Virus record (IMG/VR): IMGVR_UViG_3300030106_006483
Coordinates: 1 to 62,803 of that record
Strand: one strand, 5' to 3'
Length of the DNA stretch: 62,803 nucleotides
From: a virus
Lineage: Duplodnaviria > Caudoviricetes
Below, one piece after another: positions 112 to 50,716 of the stretch. Both the position numbers and the translations under genes were made by a program. The stretch's first letter is position 1. Every line of letters starts with the position of its first letter. Below the pieces are notes generated by a model. It saw nothing but the letters and a program-made list of their open reading frames with translations, was not told where the DNA came from and searched no databases.

Positions 112-195
112 ATGATTTGGAGTGTACTAATTGTAATAGGTATTTATGTGGTGATTGTAGGAATGCTAATAATGTGGAACAATGAAACTCGTTAA
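112..195 (+). CDS. 27-aa hydrophobic membrane peptide (not in ORF track)
   Basis: MIWSVLIVIGIYVVIVGMLIMWNNETR; GGAGG at 101-105; stop overlaps start of def. Confidence 0.6.
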   Translation: MIWSVLIVIGIYVVIVGMLIMWNNETR

Positions 196-622
196 ACATC
201 CAGATACATTTTTAAGAGGACCAACAGAAGAAATAAGTTTTCCTCTGACTGAAGAAAATAAAATTATTATTAAAAATATGATTAATTTAATGTATCAAGA
301 AAGAGGTATTGGTTTAGCTGCTAATCAAGCAGGATATAATCGAAAGATATTCGTAATGGATGTAAGTAATGAAAAGGATAGTCCACAAGTGTTTATTAAT
401 CCTGTCATTACTGCTAAAAATAATATTAAAATGGGAGATATGGAAGGTTGTTTATCTTGTCCTGGTATAACGGTTAAAATTCCTAGATCTTTATCTGTTA
501 ATTTAAAATGGATATGTGAGCATGGTAAGGAGCAACATAAAACATTCTATCATTTGCCAGGAAGAGTAGTGCAACATGAGATGGATCACCTCAATGGAAA
601 GTTAATTATAGATGAAGTATAA
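182..622 (+). CDS. def: peptide deformylase
   Basis: three PDF motifs GIGLAANQ, EGCLS, HEMDH. Confidence 0.95.
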   Translation: MKLVKHPDTFLRGPTEEISFPLTEENKIIIKNMINLMYQERGIGLAANQAGYNRKIFVMDVSNEKDSPQVFINPVITAKNNIKMGDMEGCLSCPGITVKIPRSLSVNLKWICEHGKEQHKTFYHLPGRVVQHEMDHLNGKLIIDEV

Positions 623-4486: not shown

Positions 4487-4610
4487 CTTGTGGCTTGCAG
4501 CTTGTAGCTGTAGTAGCTGGTGGCTTGTAGCTTGTAACTTTAGTAGCTTGTAGCTTACGTAGTTTCCGGAGCTCCGCATAATACTTAGGATGTCTCCAGA
4601 CGTGAGTCAC
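4419..4610 (-). CDS. possible small protein whose C-terminus is encoded by the repeat array
   Basis: GTG start; non-repetitive N-terminus WRHPKYYAEL. Confidence 0.35.
   Translation of the reverse strand: MTHVWRHPKYYAELRKLRKLQATKVTSYKPPATTATSCKPQATEDSEDITRKLQAHSHKQQVT
4433..4561. repeat. GCTTGnn heptamer array with 9-mer interruptions
   Basis: units GCTTGTG/GCTTGTA/GCTTGCA etc. arranged 9+7+7+7. Confidence 0.9.
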
Positions 4611-4679: not shown

Positions 4680-5291
4680 TTAATGTTTCGGATAAGCCAC
4701 ATTGTTCACCCCCTTGTCCCAGCATTGTCTACAGCTGCCGCATTCATTGCCCTGATCCTGTGCCGGGCAGGTCTTGCCTGCCTGGACTACAGTCGACGTA
4801 TGAGGCCAAAAGTTAACTGGCCTCTGGTCTATCATATGCGAGGACACACGAATGATTAAATTTTTTGGTACAACCTCAGGTTGTATGCCTTTTAATATTT
4901 TTACTTCTCGCGTTGGCATCCAGTGCTGCACGGCCGGCGTGGCTGTGCATACTTCGAATATATTGTTGAGATGATCAAGCCCCTGCAGGTCACCAGAGTC
5001 ATGCCACCTAAACCATGGAACCTTCCTGCTGTACCAGGCCACCAGCGTGGTCATTGCTTCCACCCATTGTGGATGAGTTAAAGAATTCAACCTACGGGTG
5101 AGCGCGTCTTTTACATTTCTAAATCTATATCTCCCCTTCATGGCATAACAGCCGGCGCAGACTGAGCCCGCCACGGCTTGCAGCTTCACCCCTGTGATAC
5201 ACTTCCAGGCTGGCAGGTTGTAGGCGTAACCAGGCATCTTTGATGGAGCTGACAGGCCGCCGGTTATTTCTTTAGCTTCTTTTAATTTCAT
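4680..5291 (-). CDS. GP88-like (radical-SAM-related Fe-S) protein
   Basis: SKMPG, C-x13-CAGCYA, FRWHDSGD, C-terminal CPA...CGSCRQCW. Confidence 0.7.
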   Translation of the reverse strand: MKLKEAKEITGGLSAPSKMPGYAYNLPAWKCITGVKLQAVAGSVCAGCYAMKGRYRFRNVKDALTRRLNSLTHPQWVEAMTTLVAWYSRKVPWFRWHDSGDLQGLDHLNNIFEVCTATPAVQHWMPTREVKILKGIQPEVVPKNLIIRVSSHMIDQRPVNFWPHTSTVVQAGKTCPAQDQGNECGSCRQCWDKGVNNVAYPKH

Positions 5292-5400: not shown

Positions 5401-5646
5401 CTATTTAACATACTCGCGCATGCTGTAGGCTAGGCCATCAATTTGTTCCCATAACCATTCACCTGAGCTGCCCTGGTGCGGTTCCCATGCCCACTCTTCC
5501 AGATATTTATTTAATTTTTTATCAGTCCACTTGTCAAAGTCCTGAGGCAGGTGCTGCCCCAGGTAATGACCAGATGCCCATATCAAATCCTGTTTACGCT
5601 TTTTCTCTATGGATACCTGATTTTTTTTAGTTTGTTTTTTTTGCAT
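5401..5646 (-). CDS. Trp-rich hypothetical protein
   Basis: ORF track; ATG at 5646 after GGTGG; overlaps upstream gene. Confidence 0.6.
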   Translation of the reverse strand: MQKKQTKKNQVSIEKKRKQDLIWASGHYLGQHLPQDFDKWTDKKLNKYLEEWAWEPHQGSSGEWLWEQIDGLAYSMREYVK

Positions 5647-6193
5647 TTCCACCTTGTATGATTACATTGTCACCATCGAACCCGGCACCCTTCAACATGT
5701 CTCCAATTTTAGAGATCATCTTAACTTCAGCGTGCTTTTCGTGTTTGTCTTTGTATTTAATATATTCCTTGTTCATGATCACAGGCTCAAATTTAGAGTG
5801 GTACCAGATACCACCATCATAAGAGTTTTTTAATTTTTCTGTGGGAATATATTGAGATGATGATACATGCCATTGATCATTTTTAAAGATGTAAATATAT
5901 TCAATATGACAGTCACCTCTCATATTATACATGTACATCCACTCATCTCTGTAGGTTTTGGCTAGATCTTCTTCTCTGTCCCAGTCTCTTCCATAAAAGC
6001 TACATTCATTTATGGTATCTCCCAGGTAGCTGGCATCTCCATAATTAAATAGTTCTTTTGCCAAATCATATTTATTATAATGATCAACCAGGCATTTTCC
6101 TACGCCATATGGATACCCATCACTGTGAACATATATTACTTTTACTTTTTTTGTCTTTGGGTCTTCTATTGCTATATTGCTTCGTGTACTCAT
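5627..6193 (-). CDS. conserved phage early protein, MSTRS...HxDGYP family, function unknown
   Basis: MSTRSNIAI...IYVHSDGYPYGVG...EYIYIF; RBS GAAAGAGAGGA. Confidence 0.75.
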   Translation of the reverse strand: MSTRSNIAIEDPKTKKVKVIYVHSDGYPYGVGKCLVDHYNKYDLAKELFNYGDASYLGDTINECSFYGRDWDREEDLAKTYRDEWMYMYNMRGDCHIEYIYIFKNDQWHVSSSQYIPTEKLKNSYDGGIWYHSKFEPVIMNKEYIKYKDKHEKHAEVKMISKIGDMLKGAGFDGDNVIIQGGNAKKTN

Positions 6194-6214
6194 TTTTCCT
6201 CTCTTTCTATTCCT

Positions 6215-6243
6215 ATCTTATATTATATAGGATCAATTGTCAA
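6215..6243 (-). promoter_or_regulatory. sigma70-type early promoter
   Basis: TTGACA(6243-38)-17-TAAGAT(6220-15). Confidence 0.7.
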
Positions 6244-6272
6244 GTATTATTTTTAAGCTTGCCGCTTGATGC

Positions 6273-6510
6273 TTTGACCAGTAACCGCCCACTACTAGCT
6301 AACGCGGGATTCTGTTACTGATCCCAGATCCACCAGGTGCATGTAAGACATTAAAGATCTGCCTAGTGGATCAGGGATCAGGAGATGAGTATGTAGGTAC
6401 AAATTCATCTCAAGTCCTGATCCCAGACCCTACGTTGCAGTAGTTACTACAAGCTTAGCATACACAGCAGGGTCAGGGATCAGGGGGCATCTAAACAAGT
6501 AGCCCCCAGA
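6273..6510 (-). ncRNA. candidate structured RNA: alternating dual-repeat stem-loop array
   Basis: CTGATCCCAGA at 6318 and 6417, TCAGGGATCAG at 6371 and 6473; 35-45-nt unique self-complementary spacers; strand inferred from flanking genes. Confidence 0.6.
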
Positions 6511-6517
6511 ATTCTAT

Positions 6518-6763
6518 TTAAAATGGCATATCTTCAGTTATATTTACTTCTTTGCCATTCGTTTTGGTTTCAACTTCATTAGTTAAAATCAAAGCTGGGT
6601 TTTCTTGAGCTTGAGTAATAAAGAACATCACATTTTCATTCTCTTCTAAAAGACTTAAAGCTGACAAATATTGATTTGCCTCCTTAATTGTCTTTGCCCA
6701 TTTGGACACAGAATAATCTTCAGAATATTCTGTTTTATATTTTCGTATTATTAAGTATATCAT
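6518..6763 (-). CDS. hypothetical early protein
   Basis: RBS GAAAGAGGA; acidic DMPF C-terminal tip. Confidence 0.7.
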   Translation of the reverse strand: MIYLIIRKYKTEYSEDYSVSKWAKTIKEANQYLSALSLLEENENVMFFITQAQENPALILTNEVETKTNGKEVNITEDMPF

Positions 6764-6791: not shown

Positions 6792-6820
6792 ATTATATCA
6801 GATTAACCCATAAATAGCAA
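6792..6820 (-). promoter_or_regulatory. sigma70-type early promoter (leftward)
   Basis: TTGCTA-17-TATAAT; TTAACCCA direct repeat at 6783 and 6803. Confidence 0.7.
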
Positions 6821-6932: not shown

Positions 6933-7910
6933 ATGAGTAGACTACGATTAAATCAAGAGTACAGAAATAAAATCGCAAATCGTATGCGAGTACATCTTGA
7001 ACAAGAAGATACTATTGAAAAACAAAACTATGACAAGTTAAAAGGTGAACAAATTGACTTGAATGACAATGCTTGGAAAATGGCAGAAAAAATAGTTAGA
7101 CGACATTATACCGAAGATGATGTTGCTAAAGCACAATATCTTCAAAACAAGTTTGAAAATGTTGATACTATTGCAAAGGATAGTTGTTTCCATTTTCATT
7201 ATCTTGGAACTAAAGAAACAAGAGATTATGACAACAATGCTAGAGTTGAGGACGCAACAATAGAAAGTCATTTTGATTTTAGATTAAATGGAAGTATTGA
7301 TACTGACAATAATTATTCATCTTCAAGAGATAGTGCTTATGGTTATGCTTTATATCGTGATGAACTAAAAGCACAAGATGATTGCAACCCAGATATTTTG
7401 ATTGAACAAGAGGGCAAAGACAACAACCCACATAAAACAAAATATTGTGATAACAATAATAAATATCTTGGTGATGATGACAAAGGTTATGGCAAACAAT
7501 GGAATGAAAAATATCAATTAGATTTAATTGGTAGAAATTATTGTCGTGATAGGTCTATTGCGTGTACTGAGCAAGAGTATATGTTTTTAATAGATTGGAA
7601 AAAACAAAAATCACAATTTGTTATTGCACATCAAAAATGGATTAAATCTATTTTAGACCAGATGAAAGAAATTAAAGTTGGTTTAAAAGGTTATAAATAT
7701 TTAGACGAGGCGATTGAACTTTCAACAGAACTTGGCTTGAATATTTCTGACGCAGAAATAATCAGAACAAACTCAACTGGCTTAACTATCTACAATCCTA
7801 AAAATCTGGCAGACAGAATAAAAGGAATGAAGAATAAGAGAGTTAAGACCAAAGCAGAAAAAATAGCAGAAAGGTTATTATACGAGCAACAAAAACAAAG
7901 TGTAAATTAA
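6933..7910 (+). CDS. early hypothetical protein (weak Nmad5-like termini)
   Basis: RBS GAAAGAGAGGA; N-terminal RLNQEYRNKI. Confidence 0.75.
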   Translation: MSRLRLNQEYRNKIANRMRVHLEQEDTIEKQNYDKLKGEQIDLNDNAWKMAEKIVRRHYTEDDVAKAQYLQNKFENVDTIAKDSCFHFHYLGTKETRDYDNNARVEDATIESHFDFRLNGSIDTDNNYSSSRDSAYGYALYRDELKAQDDCNPDILIEQEGKDNNPHKTKYCDNNNKYLGDDDKGYGKQWNEKYQLDLIGRNYCRDRSIACTEQEYMFLIDWKKQKSQFVIAHQKWIKSILDQMKEIKVGLKGYKYLDEAIELSTELGLNISDAEIIRTNSTGLTIYNPKNLADRIKGMKNKRVKTKAEKIAERLLYEQQKQSVN

Positions 7911-8214: not shown

Positions 8215-8396
8215 TGTGGTTTGATCACATAATTAATTACAATATAGTGCTATACATAGGTATAGCACTAATTGTTGGTGGTTTTATTTTATTTTTAGTA
8301 GCAGCTCATTTTGAGAGAGAGGCTGAAATAAAACTTTTTAAACTAAAACAATTAGAGGAGGCTTTTTACAAAGCTAAAGAAAATGAGCGATTATAA
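8214..8396 (+). CDS. small membrane protein
   Basis: one hydrophobic segment IVLYIGIALIVGGFILFLVAA. Confidence 0.65.
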   Translation: MWFDHIINYNIVLYIGIALIVGGFILFLVAAHFEREAEIKLFKLKQLEEAFYKAKENERL

Positions 8397-19225: not shown

Positions 19226-19461
19226 TGGAAGGAATGCATTTACTTTTTAAGTTACAGAAAGAAATTAAAACTGTTCAAGATAATTTGTCAGGTGTTCTGT
19301 TAAATGGACAGGTTGACAAATGGGAAAAATATCAATATATGGTAGGACAGCTAAAAGCGTATCAAATAGTATTACAGGAAATCTCTAACCTGCTAAAAGA
19401 TAAGGAGCATGAAAATGAAGACACAACAACCAATATCCACAAACTCAAACCAAAAGATTAA
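19225..19461 (+). CDS. hypothetical helical protein
   Basis: coupled; precedes groES. Confidence 0.7.
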   Translation: MEGMHLLFKLQKEIKTVQDNLSGVLLNGQVDKWEKYQYMVGQLKAYQIVLQEISNLLKDKEHENEDTTTNIHKLKPKD

Positions 19462-19861
19462 ATTACCCGATACATCTTTAGTAGGTTTAAAAAAATCAGA
19501 AGAACAAAAAGAAGTTACCAACGAAAGCTCCAAATTACCTCAACCAACTGGTTGGAGAATTTTAGTTTTACCATTTAAAATGAGTGAAAAAACTAAAGGT
19601 GGAGTAATTATGAATGAGTCTACGTTAGAACGACAACAAGTAGGTTCACAAGTAGGAAACGTTTTAGCTATGGGACCAGAAGCTTACACAGGTAAGCGAT
19701 TTGAAAATTCTGGACCGTGGTGTAAAAAAGGAGACTGGGTAGTGTTCGCACGATACGCAGGATCTAGAATACAAATAGAGGGTGGTGAAGTGCGTTTGCT
19801 GAACGATGATGAAGTTTTAGCAACAGTCAAGGATCCAATGGATATCTTGCATCAATACTAA
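19409..19861 (+). CDS. groES: co-chaperonin GroES (Cpn10)
   Basis: PTGWRILV, KTKGGVIM, VLAMGP, GDWVVFARYAG, LLNDDEVLA. Confidence 0.9.
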   Translation: MKMKTQQPISTNSNQKIKLPDTSLVGLKKSEEQKEVTNESSKLPQPTGWRILVLPFKMSEKTKGGVIMNESTLERQQVGSQVGNVLAMGPEAYTGKRFENSGPWCKKGDWVVFARYAGSRIQIEGGEVRLLNDDEVLATVKDPMDILHQY

Positions 19862-35361: not shown

Positions 35362-35991
35362 ATGAACTTAAGTAATTATTATTGGTATTTTCAATCAGCC
35401 ATTCCTCATCGCATCTGTGATGATATTGTACGCTATGGAAAACAATTACAAGATGGTTTAGCTACTACAGGTGGTTATGGCGATGTTAAAAAATTAAACC
35501 AATCTCAAATTAAAGATTTAAAAAAGAAAAGAGATTCAAATATAGTTTGGATGTCTGATCGGTGGATTTATAAAGAAATACAACCTTATATTCATCAAGC
35601 TAATCAATCTGCAGGATGGAATTTTCAATGGGATTTTTCAGAGTCTTGTCAATTCACTAAATATAATAAAGGTCAATATTACGATTGGCATTGTGATGGA
35701 TGGGATAGACCGTATCAAAGACAACAAGGGGATCCTTCAAATGGTAAAATAAGAAAGCTATCCGTAACTGTTACATTATCGGATCCTAAAGAATATAAAG
35801 GTGGAGAATTAGAATTTGATTTTAGAAATTTAGATCCCGATAAAAAACCTAATGTACATAAATGCAAAGAAATATTACCTAAAGGATCTTTAGTAGTGTT
35901 TCCTGGCTTTGTGTGGCATAGAGTATGCCCAGTTAAAAAAGGATCAAGACATAGTTTAGTAATATGGAATTTAGGATGGCCTTATAAATGA
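35362..35991 (+). CDS. 2OG-Fe(II) oxygenase, PKHD/prolyl-hydroxylase-like
   Basis: WHCD, RKLS, YKGGEL, HRVCPV..G.RHSLV.W. Confidence 0.88.
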   Translation: MNLSNYYWYFQSAIPHRICDDIVRYGKQLQDGLATTGGYGDVKKLNQSQIKDLKKKRDSNIVWMSDRWIYKEIQPYIHQANQSAGWNFQWDFSESCQFTKYNKGQYYDWHCDGWDRPYQRQQGDPSNGKIRKLSVTVTLSDPKEYKGGELEFDFRNLDPDKKPNVHKCKEILPKGSLVVFPGFVWHRVCPVKKGSRHSLVIWNLGWPYK

Positions 35992-36731
35992 AAAAGAAAC
36001 AAAAGAAAGCAAGAAAAGTAAAGATTCAAAAAGAATTGGATAAGATATCCTGTGGAAGTGCCAAATCATTTCCTAAACAATTAACTCGAGAAGATTTATT
36101 TAGATGTCCTATATGGTTTGCTGATGAACCTGCATTCGTAGATGATTTAAATAAAGCGTCTGATAAATATATAGAAGATTCTAAAAAGAATTTAAAAAAA
36201 GATATTGATAAAAGGAATAAGGAATTTGGAGATAAAGGAGATATGGGTAACGTGTTTCATTCTACATCATTAATCGGTGATCCTAATTTTAAACAATTAC
36301 AAGATTATATAGGTGCTACAGCCCATAATTTATTGGTAGAAATGGGTTTTGACTTAACCAATTATCAATTGTTTACTACAGAAATGTGGGTACAAGAGTT
36401 TGCTAAAAGAGGTGGTGGACACCATACTTTACATACTCATTGGAATGGTCACATATCCGGTTTTTATTTTTTAAAAGCTAGTGAGAAAACCTCTCGGCCT
36501 TTATTTGAAGATCCTCGGCCAGGAAACATAATGAATCTTTTACCAGAAAAAGATAAAACACAAGTAACCTATGCAAGTTCTCAAATTAATTATGATGTAA
36601 GACCAGGTCGTCTGATATTCTTCCCGTCTTATATGCCCCATCAATATATAGTAGATATGGGATATGAGCCATTTAGGTTTATTCACTGGAACTGTCAAGC
36701 TATACCGAAAGGAGTATTAAATGTCACCTAA
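35988..36731 (+). CDS. putative 2OG-Fe(II) oxygenase (TIGR02466-like)
   Basis: HTH..ISGFYFL, FEDPR, FFPSYMPH. Confidence 0.75.
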   Translation: MKKKQKKARKVKIQKELDKISCGSAKSFPKQLTREDLFRCPIWFADEPAFVDDLNKASDKYIEDSKKNLKKDIDKRNKEFGDKGDMGNVFHSTSLIGDPNFKQLQDYIGATAHNLLVEMGFDLTNYQLFTTEMWVQEFAKRGGGHHTLHTHWNGHISGFYFLKASEKTSRPLFEDPRPGNIMNLLPEKDKTQVTYASSQINYDVRPGRLIFFPSYMPHQYIVDMGYEPFRFIHWNCQAIPKGVLNVT

Positions 36732-37218
36732 AGTTGTAGAAAATTTTTTATCTCCTTCGAATTATAATGCTTTATACAGTGCCCTTACGAATGAATATTT
36801 TCCCTGGTATTATAATAATTATAAAGTTAAAGAAGTATCTGATAAATTATTTCACTATCAATTTACTCATGTTTTTTTTGAAAATAATAAAATTAATTCT
36901 AGTTATTTTACTATTTTACAATCTTTACTTGAAAAATTAAAACTTAAAACTTTAAAAAAAGTTAAAGCTAATTTAAACCCTATTAGTGACAAGTTAATAG
37001 AATTTAGTGAACATCAAGATGCTTTCAAAGAATTACAATGTACGAGCATGATATATTATCTTAACACTAATAACGGCTATACTAAAATAAAAAATAAAAA
37101 AATAAAATCTAAAGCAAATAAAGCTGTTTTTTTTCCATCTCACGCTTTTCATTTTGGAACAAATTCAACGGATTGTAATAACAGAATGGTGATAAATATA
37201 ATATATAAGGAGGATTAA
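36721..37218 (+). CDS. 2OG-Fe(II) oxygenase
   Basis: FPWY, HQD, IYYLNTNNGYT, H.G...RMVINI. Confidence 0.75.
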   Translation: MSPKVVENFLSPSNYNALYSALTNEYFPWYYNNYKVKEVSDKLFHYQFTHVFFENNKINSSYFTILQSLLEKLKLKTLKKVKANLNPISDKLIEFSEHQDAFKELQCTSMIYYLNTNNGYTKIKNKKIKSKANKAVFFPSHAFHFGTNSTDCNNRMVINIIYKED

Positions 37219-49845: not shown

Positions 49846-50340
49846 ATGAAACTTTCCAAAAATTTTAGCTTGGCAGAGCTTACTAAATCGCAAACAGCCG
49901 AACGTATGGGCTTGGACAATAACCCTAATGAAGATGAAACAGAAAACTTAAGATTGCTCTGTGAGAGGGTCCTACAGCCCGTTAGGGACCATTTTGACGA
50001 CGTAGTTACCATCAGCTCGGGCTATCGAAACGAAATTTTAAGCCAAAAAATAGGCAGCTCAAGCAAGAGCCAACATTGCAAGGGGATGGCGGCGGATTTT
50101 GAGATCTTTGGTGTTGATAATAATAAGGTCAGCGATTGGATCAAAGAGAACCTTATGTTTGACCAGCTGATCCTTGAGTACTATGAACCGGGCCAACCAA
50201 ACTCAGGCTGGATCCACGTGTCCTATAATAGAGATGTTAATCTGAACCGAAAAGAATATCTCATGGCTGTCAAAAATAGTTCTGGCAAAACGGAGTATAA
50301 ACCTATACTAGGTCTGTCTACGGACAGATATGCAAAATAG
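49846..50340 (+). CDS. endolysin, peptidase M15A
   Basis: LSKNFSLAEL, SSGYR, SQHCKGMAAD, WIHVSY. Confidence 0.85.
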   Translation: MKLSKNFSLAELTKSQTAERMGLDNNPNEDETENLRLLCERVLQPVRDHFDDVVTISSGYRNEILSQKIGSSSKSQHCKGMAADFEIFGVDNNKVSDWIKENLMFDQLILEYYEPGQPNSGWIHVSYNRDVNLNRKEYLMAVKNSSGKTEYKPILGLSTDRYAK

Positions 50341-50716
50341 GTTATTAGTACATAAACATTTAATTATAAGAGCAGAAGCAATAAAGCCCCCTGTGGACGA
50401 AAAGCTATTAAAAGAATGGTTTCTGGAGTTTGTTAAAGCTATCAACATGAAACTATTCATGGGGCCTTATGTAAAGTACTGTGAAATGAAAGGTAATAGA
50501 GGTATTACAGCTGTTGCCATTATAGAAACTTCACATATAGCAATGCATATATGGGATGAAGTAAGCCCTGCTTTAATGCAGTTTGATGTCTATTCTTGTG
50601 GTGATTTAAATGTTGAGGATATCTGTAGGAAAATTGAAAACGATTTTGAAATCCGGAAAATGGAGTTTAAATTTTTGAACCGCGAGGCCGGCCTTCAAGA
50701 AATTTCTAAAAAATAA
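50330..50716 (+). CDS. speD: pyruvoyl-dependent AdoMetDC/SpeD-family decarboxylase
   Basis: GITAVAIIETSHIAMHIWDE, FDVYSCG. Confidence 0.8.
   Translation: MQNRLLVHKHLIIRAEAIKPPVDEKLLKEWFLEFVKAINMKLFMGPYVKYCEMKGNRGITAVAIIETSHIAMHIWDEVSPALMQFDVYSCGDLNVEDICRKIENDFEIRKMEFKFLNREAGLQEISKK

Follow-up and report, generated by a model that had tools for sequence, protein, structure and literature searches.

Structured RNAs assembled from conserved hairpin stems and diverse, exchanged tips in HTVC023P/027P-type pelagiphages

Results

Genomic context of the array region

The window analyzed here, 62,803 nucleotides (62.8 kb), is a complete pelagiphage genome of the HTVC023P/027P type, and the array region within it is intergenic. 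Positions 6194–6517 contain no credible ORF and are flanked by two minus-strand ORFs in the ORF list; GC content rises to 47% in the array region versus 25–36% in the adjoining windows on either side. Annotation with Pfam and PHROG placed the array between the genes for the small and large terminase subunits, and the features of the locus are collected in Table 1. Two neighboring genes are conserved among the related loci: p203, which lies downstream of the array on the same strand in 111 of 126 loci, and p325, which lies upstream and divergent in 95 of 126, with both arranged in this way in 88 of 126. The other two neighbors are optional, p188 being found downstream in 16 of the 126 loci and a homologue of the 81-aa ORF upstream in five; homologous DNA for the latter occurs in loci L100, L050, and L020.

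Searches with the neighboring proteins returned little. The AF2 model of p203 (pLDDT 91.5) gave no Foldseek match at E ≤ 0.001, and a likeness to QueE and other radical-SAM enzymes was set aside, as the best VIA-align scores (Z 6.6 and 6.4) fell under the tool's noise guide of Z 8. The p325 model (pLDDT 80) likewise gave no PDB fold match with Foldseek at E ≤ 0.001, and a Colicin D fragment found by PDB sequence search at E ∼0.07 only was treated as noise. For p188 there was no Pfam match, a best E of 0.08 in the PDB sequence search, and only unnamed viral clusters in the Atlas; the 81-aa ORF had no match in Pfam or PHROG. No RNase III, dsRBD, RT, Cas, or RNA polymerase domain was recognized in a Pfam scan of 58 ORFs, mostly confined to those of at least 100 aa, and ARAGORN reported no tRNA or tmRNA gene in the whole window.

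Two leftward sigma70-like promoter candidates bracket the array. The original prediction had placed the array downstream of a leftward promoter, and a candidate matching the consensus at 10 of 12 positions was indeed found upstream of the 81-aa ORF and the array; the second, with the same score, precedes p188. A promoter-like site within 500 nt downstream of the array was present in 85 of 116 related loci examined, and in 69 of these 85 at least two AAGC motifs lie within 45 nt before the −35 element. In the window, the second candidate is directly preceded by three heptad repeats containing CAAGC. A known terminator had been named as an alternative identity for the locus; no terminator-like site was found within 6194–6517 on either strand. 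Three RNA-library runs contain ∼5% of the sampled words; only one covers part of the array, with a single contig, and the rest of 6194–6517 was uncovered. A 222-nt Logan contig from an RNA library (run X20, record 17) carries the identical 64-nt hairpin of 6318–6381 between the flanks of another phage, although it may reflect DNA carry-over; the runs speak neither for nor against expression. In the cultured relative HTVC027P, gp34 and gp33 sit just downstream of the RNA locus, and according to PMC12753301 they form a temporal cluster of their own, high at 6–9 hpi.

Table 1. Features of the array locus in the window, with the corresponding locus of HTVC027P
Feature	Position	Strand	Remarks
p203 (Pfam GP88)	4680–5291	−	PF17338, E 4e-29; conserved downstream gene
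p188, 188-aa gene (phrog_1987)	5627–6193	−	downstream of array; optional in family
Second sigma70-like promoter candidate	6215–6243	−	TTGACA-17-TAAGAT; for 188-aa gene
Three CAAGC heptad repeats	6255–6274	−	
3′ module	6275–6317	−	UAAC...GUUA around CCCGC...GUGGG; ends in orphan arm CUGGUCA (6275–6281)
Handle hairpin, second in sense direction	6318–6381	−	CUGAUCCC-U-GAUCCAC...GUGGAUC-U-GGGAUCAG
Inter-hairpin small hairpin	6382–6416	−	GAGAUGA...UCAUCUC; inverted repeat I5 and folds
Handle hairpin, first in sense direction	6417–6483	−	CUGAUCCC-U-GACCC...GGGUC-U-GGGAUCAG
First small hairpin	6484–6516	−	sense UUCU-GGGGGC-UACUUGUUUAGAU-GCCCCC (folds)
81-aa ORF	6518–6763	−	between promoter candidate and array; optional in family (ORF list)
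Leftward sigma70-like promoter candidate	6792–6820	−	TTGCTA-17-TATAAT, TG-extended
p325	6933–7910	+	conserved divergent gene
RNA locus of HTVC027P	MN698241, about 17.67–18.22 kb	−	

Repeat arms and hairpins in the window

Two 11-nt arms alternate along the array, arm A (CTGATCCCAGA) at 6318 and 6417 and arm B (TCAGGGATCAG) at 6371 and 6473, with B matching the reverse complement of A at every position but 9. Partial copies lie at 6503–6510 (CCCCCAGA) and 6275–6281 (TGACCAG), the arms are separated by 36, 42, 35, 45, and 19 nt, and the stems are extended by TAAC/GTTA, TCCAC/GTGGA, GAGATGA/TCATCTC, CCCT/AGGG, and GGGGC/GCCCC; in all of these particulars, including the single mismatch between the arms, the original prediction was correct. 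The motif CTGATCCCWGA, with up to one mismatch allowed, was matched six times in the window versus a mean of 1.59 in shuffled sequences, and since none of 100 shuffles reached six, the repetition exceeds chance. All four exact arm copies are confined to the array region, and these together with both matches to covariance model R1 lie at one place in the complete 62.8-kb genome, which thus has a single locus.

Folding of the 291-nt region gave z = −5.70 for the minus and −6.59 for the plus strand relative to shuffled sequences, none of 200 shuffles being as good. The predicted structure contains two ∼19-bp handle hairpins that share a stem, in sense CUGAUCCC-U-GAUCC.../...GGAUC-U-GGGAUCAG with a U·U mismatch, flanked by two smaller hairpins and a 3′ module. 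With model R1 the handle hairpins scored 49.1 bits (E 1.3e-10; 6417–6483) and 59.9 bits (E 2.2e-13; 6318–6381). The first of them in the sense direction (67 nt) is 100% identical to hairpins of two related loci, L003 and L104, whose p203 is 54% identical. The 5′ UUCUG of the 6484–6516 hairpin is predicted to pair with CAGAA at 6303–6307, which would close the whole array; its loop, UACUNGUUUAGAU, was found in 11 unique contexts, carried by different stems, among them GGGGGC/GCCCCC, GGUGU/ACACC, AGUAAGUU/AACUUACU, and AAUUAAUU/AAUUAAUU. No relative carrying the 6382–6416 module was found, and a homologous 3′ module is present in locus L007 with a compensatory GGAC/GUCC. The orphan arm that ends the 3′ module, the TGACCAG copy above, resembles a 5′ arm and can pair with GAUCAG of the last hairpin.

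Distribution of the family among relatives

The exact handle pattern (class 1) was found in at least 120 IMG/VR contigs, in every case at an equivalent syntenic position, whereas a search of 185,579 prokaryote genomes turned it up in just four small MAG/SAG contigs. A sister pattern, CUUGAGCCC...GGGGUCAAG (class 2), was found in at least 120 further contigs. A single hairpin copy is carried by Pelagibacter phage HTVC027P, and likewise by phage 023Pt_psg01. As proposed for homologous loci, the repeats recur in relatives and the number of units varies, from one to four hairpins per locus. Among GenBank phages, blastn of the 324-nt region returned only a chance 35-nt match, the sole match of a typical class 1 architecture was a weak one to the promoter region of HTVC027P, and a class 2 array gave none.

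Handle classes were mixed in none of 262 loci, 98 of which hold two or more hairpins. On FastTree phylogenies the class changed five times along the p325 tree and 10 times along the p203 tree, versus 32–56 times in shuffles (five shuffle values per tree), a clustering that names no partner since kinship alone can yield it. The orphan arm, noted originally only as a partial copy, proved to be conserved and to track the handle class: CTGGTC was found in 35 class 1 versus eight class 2 tails, and CTTGGC in two versus 39. The four nucleotides beside the arm and the four beside the orphan arm are also complementary, at 2.55 and 2.85 of 4 versus 1.5 in controls, with complete four-base pairing in 9 of 38 and 12 of 40 cases versus 1–2% of controls. 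Beyond the handle hairpins, relatives have conserved multi-helix domains with covariation, namely a P2 helix, a ∼100-nt “domain 2,” and the Rfam family Flavobacterium-1; the window contains neither domain 2 nor Flavobacterium-1.

Stem covariation and the folded strand

Across 106 distinct hairpins, 96.3% of cells were paired, whereas slid controls gave 24–49%. Changes on both sides were seen at 9 of 18 stem pairs, and the observed values were reached by none of 500 shuffles; the features first described for the window, a constant handle with stems that covary and loops that vary, are real. Contiguous helix length has its median at 19 bp and falls within 17–21 bp in 96 of the 106 hairpins. With a stem of about two helical turns and an internal mismatch, a frequent trait of RNase III sites, the handle hairpins would qualify as candidate sites for that enzyme.

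The signature of the family is this ∼19-bp hairpin with the near-invariant core CCC-U-GAUCC/GGAUC-U-GGG, in which the mismatch is usually U·U. Class 1 had U·U in 182 hairpin occurrences versus six with a Watson–Crick pair; invariance of the outer handle in this class is partly by construction, because its loci were collected with the handle pattern itself. In class 2, U·U was present in 104 of 136 hairpins and replaced by a Watson–Crick pair in 28, so the mismatch is not strictly required. Read in the opposite orientation, stem positions 1–8 would hold ∼98 C·A or A·C cells, with no G·T among the pair types listed, and class 2 has 58 G·U versus 17 A·C. These one-sided wobbles and the compensatory changes identify the minus strand of the window as the folded strand, as had been proposed, an assignment that agrees with the direction of the sigma70-like promoters and flanking genes and with the strand of Flavobacterium-1 in some relatives. 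Conservation of the stem could stem from recurrent recombination as much as from a binding partner.

Diversity, reuse, and exchange of the tips

The tips, with a median length of 25 nt, form a highly diverse and horizontally exchanged pool: 147 unique hairpins gave 119 tip clusters. The loops had been taken for unique spacers; instead they form families, some with internal compensatory changes (e.g. cluster 0), and reappear on stems of other kinds and with either handle class. Of 46 recurrences of tips outside canonical hairpins in 125 related loci, 45 kept the orientation, and an invertible segment or shufflon was rejected on this ground. Identical hairpins of 58–67 nt were shared despite p203 identity below 60% in 15 of 44 pairs, and by the equivalent measure for p325 in nine of 35, and the flanking proteins of phages with identical hairpins can be only 36–54% identical. 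From these patterns, the stem core evidently serves as a crossover site for recombination. Tips alone fold only weakly better than shuffles (mean z −0.34, 24% below −1).

A guide role for the array was examined through matches to the tips. For 134 tips, the window genome yielded no more matches than shuffled controls did, and all matches to the flanks of 125 related loci lay in array contexts, none being target-like. Searched as exact 20–22-mers, two tips matched 20 and six IMG/VR contigs and one tip matched 37 contigs of JGI metagenomes, every match again in a helix-tip context; a 23-mer from the tip of the 6318–6381 hairpin had no exact match in IMG/VR. These comparisons, which covered phage and metagenome sequences and would miss short imperfect seed pairing, yielded nothing target-like for any tip and lend no support to a guide role of the CRISPR kind.

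Comparison with described RNA families

No match to Rfam 15 was obtained at the gathering threshold in the whole window, and at E ≤ 10 the best sub-threshold matches in 6150–6600 were miRNA precursor models, i.e. generic hairpins; the core of locus L049 was also without a match. In six related loci, Flavobacterium-1 (RF02976; 90–115 bits) shares the strand of the handle hairpins and lies either between them or downstream. These loci include HTVC027P and a Flavobacterium SAG scaffold, which presumably gave the motif its name. A literature search for the “Flavobacterium-1” RNA motif found nothing, and the name does not occur in the main text of PMC5737381. The handle strings retrieved only an unrelated salmon miRNA paper, searches for pelagiphage noncoding RNA only unrelated papers, and PMC9599517 is silent on promoters, hairpins, and intergenic elements. 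Judged by Rfam 15 and the literature searched, the family is undescribed; the supplements of PMC5737381 and of PMC10690425, the latter with more than ten thousand candidate structured RNAs of viruses from IMG/VR, may list the motif as an uncharacterized candidate.

Discussion

On its minus strand, the array region encodes a portion of a structured RNA. The family of this RNA is large, confined to HTVC023P/027P-type pelagiphages, and built from interchangeable helices. We consider the best reading, with a probability of roughly 40%, to be a modular, cassette-exchanging structured phage RNA in which the stem would be a scaffold for recognition or processing and the tips a functional payload. Host RNA polymerase would transcribe the array from the sigma70-type leftward promoter in early to mid infection, and the constant stem would be recognized by a dsRNA-specific factor that processes or stabilizes the individual hairpins as separate small RNAs. 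The leading candidate for this factor would be host RNase III, given a helix length kept near two turns and the lack of any recognizable phage dsRNA-binding protein. The tips may then act as payload modules that bind or titrate proteins or RNAs of the host, or of a competitor, with their turnover reflecting an arms race and the shared stem core doubling as the crossover site for tip swaps between co-infecting phages. A bolder version is tentative and rather doubtful: a new RNA cassette system of “display hairpins,” whose stem is read by a dedicated factor and whose more than 100 kinds of exchangeable tip constitute a traded effector pool of decoys, sponges, or seeds directed against host defense or physiology.

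The array may alternatively be the 5′ leader of a leftward operon comprising p188, p203, and the small terminase subunit, acting in cis in a manner resembling antitermination or attenuation. Because each 3′ arm can pair with its own or the next 5′ arm, in a series that ends in the orphan, such a leader could toggle between two registers and could control read-through, stability, or translation of the downstream genes. Its position upstream of p203, the covariation of the orphan arm with handle class, the complementary extensions, and the lack of an intrinsic terminator within 6194–6517 all fit this proposal. It is nonetheless unlikely, as a promoter-like site of its own separates the array from the next gene in most loci (85/116), the array is preceded by an ORF in the window, and the diverse exchanged tips and the copy number of one to four are left unexplained.

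A guide-RNA array with an unrecognized effector, in which a dedicated protein would bind and process the handles while the tips pair with nucleic acids of the host or of competing phages, is quite improbable. The constant handle with variable ∼25-nt tips, the uniformity of handle class within a genome and its few changes along neighbor gene trees, and the weak folding of isolated tips are what such a system might display, but tip matches to the window genome are at the level of shuffled controls, those in related loci and in IMG/VR and JGI data recur in array or helix-tip contexts with one prevailing orientation, distant phages share identical tips on unrelated stems, and no nuclease or RNA-binding effector was recognizable among the 58 ORFs scanned. 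Of the guide or decoy array originally envisaged, the handle, stems, loops, and folded strand have held up and the guide role has not; the tips may act as a decoy, sponge, or payload, and processing into ∼50–100-nt units is putative.

Still less probable is a large ornate RNA that folds or self-assembles as one particle, with the arms making intra- or intermolecular helices and the tips at the periphery. GOLLD and ROOL are multi-helix RNAs of this kind, often phage-borne and with a conserved core, variable periphery, and a function described as unknown in PMC5737381 and 10.1101/2024.12.08.627333. Relatives do have covarying multi-helix domains (P2, domain 2, and Flavobacterium-1), their arrays reach several hundred nucleotides, any arm can pair with any opposite arm, and the phage location is one shared with many GOLLD and ROOL RNAs (PMC5737381). 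The array differs in having no covariance-model match to either family and a variable content of modules rather than a fixed architecture; domain 2 and Flavobacterium-1 are missing from the window, and because hairpin number (one to four) and modules vary, one defined three-dimensional particle is hard to reconcile with the data.

An element acting as DNA, i.e. protein-binding inverted repeats or an extruded hairpin for packaging (pac), replication priming, or site-specific recombination, is very unlikely: it would suit the position between the terminase genes, the clustered inverted repeats containing GATC, and the evident crossover at the stem core, and single-stranded DNA would also tolerate G·T wobbles, but a duplex-DNA site needs neither compensatory changes at ∼10 further stem positions nor one-sided wobbles, tips keep one orientation rather than being inverted, and a curated RNA family lies among the neighboring modules on the same strand. 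Clustering of GATC (Dam) sites as the point of the element was dropped, GATC being ordinary genome-wide (248 observed versus 204 expected) and absent from many class 2 arms, and a P1-pac-like reading was dropped with it.

Where phage genomes are hypervariable, the sequence concerned usually codes for protein, as with tail fibers and anti-defense genes. Here, one fixed, GC-rich, non-coding locus combines near-invariant stems with diverse, horizontally exchanged RNA tips; a non-coding cassette locus would suggest that SAR11 and its phages engage in warfare at the RNA level or that the phages manipulate their host in this way. If true, the display-hairpin pool would be an RNA-level counterpart of anti-defense gene islands. 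Its carriers belong to what bioRxiv 10.1101/2019.12.14.876532 calls the most abundant marine viral group known. The matter lends itself to direct testing: HTVC027P is cultured on HTCC1062, and infection RNA-seq has already been generated (PMC12753301).

Several known systems share individual traits with the array. Flavobacterium-1, an orphan Rfam family, is re-homed by these results as one module of the pelagiphage locus; it occupies the same syntenic locus and strand and is likewise without an assigned function, and it differs in being a separate ∼121-nt module whose model excludes the handle hairpins. CRISPR arrays, and the solitary repeat units of phages that act as RNA anti-CRISPRs, combine a constant repeat with variable inserts, and the array resembles them in this and in having one repeat class per genome. 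CRISPR arrays are also recognized by direct repeats in one orientation, protospacer matches in foreign targets, and adjacent cas genes; the array instead has inverted, alternating repeats, inserts without protospacer-like matches in the phage and metagenome sequences compared, and no cas genes found among the 58 ORFs scanned, and the original statement that it is not CRISPR stands. In IS10 RNA-OUT, a long imperfect stabilizing stem presents the loop domain that carries specificity. The array hairpins similarly present a tip on a long imperfect stem, although they are arrayed and exchanged among genomes and no complementary target was found. REP/BIME elements and MITE hairpins (Correia/ERIC) are short, alternating inverted repeats with variable linkers that fold in transcripts, an organization also seen in the array; they are dispersed genome-wide, whereas the array occupies one syntenic locus per genome. 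The R sites of phage T7 are conserved ∼20-bp hairpins with an internal mismatch, repeated along an early phage transcript that host machinery makes or takes over, and processed by RNase III. They separate mRNAs and have no diverse, exchanged tips, in contrast to the array, in which tips are diverse and exchanged and nothing coding lies upstream in most relatives. The resemblance lies in the repeated mismatch hairpins with a helix held near 19 bp, at which the array would be cleaved in the same manner if its putative processing occurs.

The array in the window and its relatives

The window (62,803 bases) represents a complete virus record and is related to the Pelagibacter phages HTVC027P and HTVC023P. 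Its array occupies an intergenic stretch with a minus-strand ORF on either side and a G+C content far above that of its surroundings. All elements of the original prediction, which described two alternating 11-nt arms in a chain of stem-loops, were found in place. Exact 11-mer arms occur four times in the whole genome, all within the array; allowing up to one mismatch gave six matches against 1.59 expected, a count reached in 0 of 100 shuffles. The predicted fold is a row of neighbouring hairpins shut by a closing helix (folding z: minus strand −5.7, plus strand −6.6).

At least 120 IMG/VR contigs match the two-arm pattern exactly, with 15–45 nt between the arms. In 185,579 prokaryote genomes only four small contigs match, one of them a "Flavobacterium sp. 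SCGC AAA160-P02" scaffold; passages of the pelagiphage literature already regard this single-cell genome as a carrier of HTVC023P-type sequence. Cultured HTVC027P has one handle hairpin (the unit with the constant stem) and phage 023Pt_psg01 has one of a U.G variant; none was found in the examined HTVC023P segment. The array always lies at the same syntenic site, with one locus per genome: the divergent gene p325 (~330 aa) is upstream in 95/126 loci, the GP88-family gene p203 downstream in 111/126, and both are present in 88/126, with p188 or small ORFs as optional insertions between them. Loci carry one (61), two (51), three (11) or four (2) handle hairpins. Relatives keep the constant handle and the covarying stems that had been proposed, and their unit number varies from 1 to 4.

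Coordinates of features in the window and in related loci
Feature	Sequence	Positions	Strand
Array, intergenic	window	6194–6517	−
Handle hairpins	window	6318–6381; 6417–6483	−
Orphan arm, TGACCAG	window	6275–6281	
p203 (Pfam GP88)	window	4680–5291	−
p188, optional downstream gene	window	5627–6193	−
p325	window	6933–7910	+
CAAGCTT/ACAAGCT-type 7-nt tandem repeats	window	6255–6274; 4487–4610	−
CAAGCTT/ACAAGCT-type 7-nt tandem repeats	L001	4150–4200; 4480–4510	
Perfect 11-bp palindromic hairpin, TAGTGCTATAC-ATAG-GTATAGCACTA	window	8245–8270	
Auxiliary genes	window	182–622; 19409–19861; 35362–37218; 50330–50716	
Handle hairpin	L123 (KB911123.1)	362–425	
Flavobacterium-1 match	L123 (KB911123.1)	652–771	

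Handle classes and the folded strand

The contiguous helix of the handle hairpin has a median of 19 bp (17–21 bp in 96/106), and the variable tip beyond it measures 13–37 nt (median 25). At position 9, class 1 loci have U.U in 182 hairpin occurrences and a Watson–Crick pair in 6, a count biased by retrieval of these loci with the mismatch itself. A second class, discovered through a tip common to both, has the handle CUUGAGCCC-U-GAUCC.../...GGAUC-U-GGGGUCAAG, with U.U at position 9 in 104/136 hairpins, A-U in 20 and other Watson–Crick pairs in 8. Its less specific 18-base pattern occurs in at least 120 contigs; on validation, 133/150 hairpins had eight or more of the 10 inner positions paired, and 101 lie in loci bearing p203 or p325. 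The core CCC-U-GAUCC / GGAUC-U-GGG is common to both classes, all differences being confined to the 5–6 outermost pairs, and none of 262 loci (98 with at least two hairpins) mixes them.

Covariation was assessed on an alignment of 106 distinct hairpins, in which the 10 outermost positions of either arm were invariant by construction. Each of the nine pairs inside these positions was variable with both sides changed, and 96.3% of cells were paired; the observed values were reached in 0/500 shuffles, and slid controls gave 24–49% pairing. Non-Watson–Crick pairs were one-sided, reading as C.A/A.C on the plus strand (~98 cells at stem positions 1–8, with G.T absent from the listed pair types) and as G.U on the minus strand. 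Class 2 hairpins gave 58 G.U against 17 A.C, an independent count because class 2 arms are not self-similar between strands. The Flavobacterium-1 RNA module (RF02976) lies on the folded strand, after or between hairpins, in 6/6 loci where it was found; these loci were partly picked for the expected motif, so that 6/32 is not a frequency. The minus strand, which had been suggested as the likely transcript, is the folded strand by the one-sided G.U pairs, the Flavobacterium-1 strand and promoter-like sites. The array is a strand-specific, covarying, modular RNA-type structure.

Tip exchange

The tips of 147 unique hairpins fell into 119 clusters, with compensatory changes inside clusters (e.g. 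CUCC-GUAC-GGGAG versus CUCA-CUAG-UGGAG). Outside canonical hairpins tips recur in the same orientation in 45/46 cases, capping the P2 stem or stems beside Flavobacterium-1, or filling the gap that separates a 3′ arm from the following 5′ arm. A 20-mer from one tip was located in 20 IMG/VR contigs, on stems of class 1, of class 2 and of other kinds; a 22-mer from another was located in 6 IMG/VR and 37 JGI metagenome contigs, always at helix tips with covarying closing pairs and never coding or antisense. Whole hairpins of 58–67 nt are identical across loci with distant flanking proteins: among locus pairs with identical hairpins, p203 is <60% identical in 15/44 and p325 in 9/35, and the second handle hairpin of the table is that of L003 and L104, whose p203 is 54% identical. 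Tips undergo cassette exchange. The simplest account of this sharing is frequent recombination inside the common stem core; a crossover there keeps the resident outer arms, so that classes stay unmixed while tips swap.

The loops had been proposed to act as guides, a role that was not supported in its protospacer-type, phage-targeting form. In similarity and in complementarity to the window genome the tips did not exceed controls: the longest exact matches of window modules were 10–11 nt (shuffled means 9.8–11.2), and the blast scores of 134 tips were distributed as for shuffled tips. In the collections, the two tips searched matched only helix tips. The window-genome null and the collection scans argue, at the level of sequence, against protospacer-type targeting of phages. 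Isolated tips are G+C-rich (0.47) with weak self-structure (mean z −0.34).

Wider architecture and Flavobacterium-1

Many class 1 loci run in the order promoter, AT-rich hairpin, GGGACAAC, covarying helix P2 (UUCUGGUUG...CAACCAGAA), handle hairpin, domain 2 (~100 nt, conserved, its hairpins covarying in 18 distinct sequences), another handle hairpin, 3′ modules that vary between loci, heptad repeats of the CAAGCTT type and the next TTGACA promoter. Domain 2 (UGUUGUAGCUGUGGG...CCCACUAUAGUUCAGGUCGCGAU...CGCCUGCRCAGGACAACAA), located between two handle hairpins in, e.g., L005, L033 and L049, has no Rfam match and is absent from the window, whose array is a reduced form of this layout. The first window hairpin is a P2 helix bearing the conserved loop UACUUGUUUAGAU, which was seen in 11 contexts on at least four different stems. 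The P2 3′ CAGAA is missing from the window P2 and is found instead after the second handle hairpin, from which a single helix closing the whole array is predicted.

L123, the Flavobacterium sp. SCGC AAA160-P02 scaffold, is the namesake-type source of Flavobacterium-1 and seems to come from an HTVC023P-type phage, as a fragment of its genome. Because it carries both a handle hairpin and Flavobacterium-1, the latter is probably a pelagiphage-group RNA module, not a Flavobacterium RNA.

Promoters and neighbouring genes

The array is promoter-proximal: sigma70-like sites were found upstream in 49/109 loci (strict regex) and downstream in 85/116, and on both sides in the window. No phage RNA polymerase was recognisable among 58 ORFs scanned against Pfam. 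According to sections of PMC12753301, the two HTVC027P genes directly downstream of the RNA locus have their own temporal profile, high at 6–9 hpi; intergenic RNA was not part of the analysis described there.

The CAAGCTT-type repeats mostly adjoin the −35 of leftward genes' TTGACA promoters: of 116 loci examined, 85 have a promoter-like site downstream, and 69 of these 85 carry the repeats. A long tract fills the convergent gap after p203. HTVC027P gp33 and gp34, both preceded by such repeats, belong to a common unusual temporal expression cluster in the same sections of PMC12753301. The repeats could bind a regulator or serve in Rho loading. The divergent promoter region upstream of arrays (e.g. 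L005, L017, L026) contains a palindrome, TTGACA-N8-10-TGTCAA/GTCAAG, so that back-to-back −35 elements overlap; it could serve as an operator.

The protein collection includes at least 7498 relatives of p203, whose invariant cysteines are C31, C45 and C48 (Cx13CxxC), then C175, C184, C187 and C190. Its confident AF2 model (pLDDT 91.5) has QueE and other radical-SAM enzymes as best structural neighbours, at a Z of only 6.6, and by this model p203 may be a radical-SAM-like enzyme. The p325 gene invariably diverges from the RNA locus. Its product is very abundant in the ocean, the collection including at least 8000 relatives, all unnamed, and the AF2 model (pLDDT 80) matched no PDB fold at E ≤ 0.001. 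The palindromic hairpin beyond it is inside or adjoining small plus-strand ORFs, and a terminator scan flags it on both strands. Auxiliary genes of the window encode peptide deformylase, a Cpn10/GroES-like protein, three successive proteins with 2OG-Fe(II) oxygenase domains and an AdoMet decarboxylase-like protein; with ArfA, which HTVC027P is reported to carry near the same leftward block (PMC12753301), the surroundings of the RNA locus seem rich in translation-related take-over genes.

Possible function and comparison with known systems

Tests against known classes ruled out a terminator, a REP/BIME-type dispersed repeat and an invertible segment and also set the array apart from CRISPR, as originally proposed; Rfam membership was rejected, the window array matching no Rfam family, tRNA or tmRNA.

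The main rival reading is that the array is a switch or leader. Every 3′ arm is able to pair with the following 5′ arm, and the terminal "partial copy" of an arm (the orphan arm, sense CUGGUCA) proved conserved and class-specific in the 120-nt tail that follows the last hairpin: CTGGTC is present in 35/106 class 1 and 8/100 class 2 tails, CTTGGC in 2 and 39 of the same tails. In each class the orphan arm is predicted to pair, through one G.U, with the terminal part of that class's 3′ arm. The four bases adjoining the 3′ arm and the four adjoining the orphan arm are complementary at 2.55 and 2.85 of 4 positions (slid controls ~1.5), and all four pair in 9/38 and 12/40 cases against 1–2% of controls; the extension is UAAC/GUUA in the window and GGAC/GUCC in the same module of L007. 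A helix in competition with the outer pairs of the last hairpin is therefore probably real, and with it a switch or leader role stays in contention.

We favour recognition of the stem by a host RNase III-type factor. The host polymerase would transcribe the array, a dsRNA-specific factor would recognise the roughly two-turn stem, and the tips would be the functional payload. This proposal is preferred because helix length is constrained near the minimum size for bacterial RNase III, because the stem core is kept across phages with proteins <50% identical, and because no phage dsRNA-binding protein is visible. Core conservation could also be maintained by recombination itself.

The abundance of the carrier phages makes the array of high interest. 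The literature yielded no system combining a stem-loop array with exchangeable inserts, though two catalogues of motifs may include the element, in their supplements, as an unnamed candidate, and we know of no described system that joins such an array to integron-like insert exchange. In its working the element would be most like RNase III-type or RNA-OUT-type stem-loop arrays, and its exchangeable inserts would be an integron-like feature.
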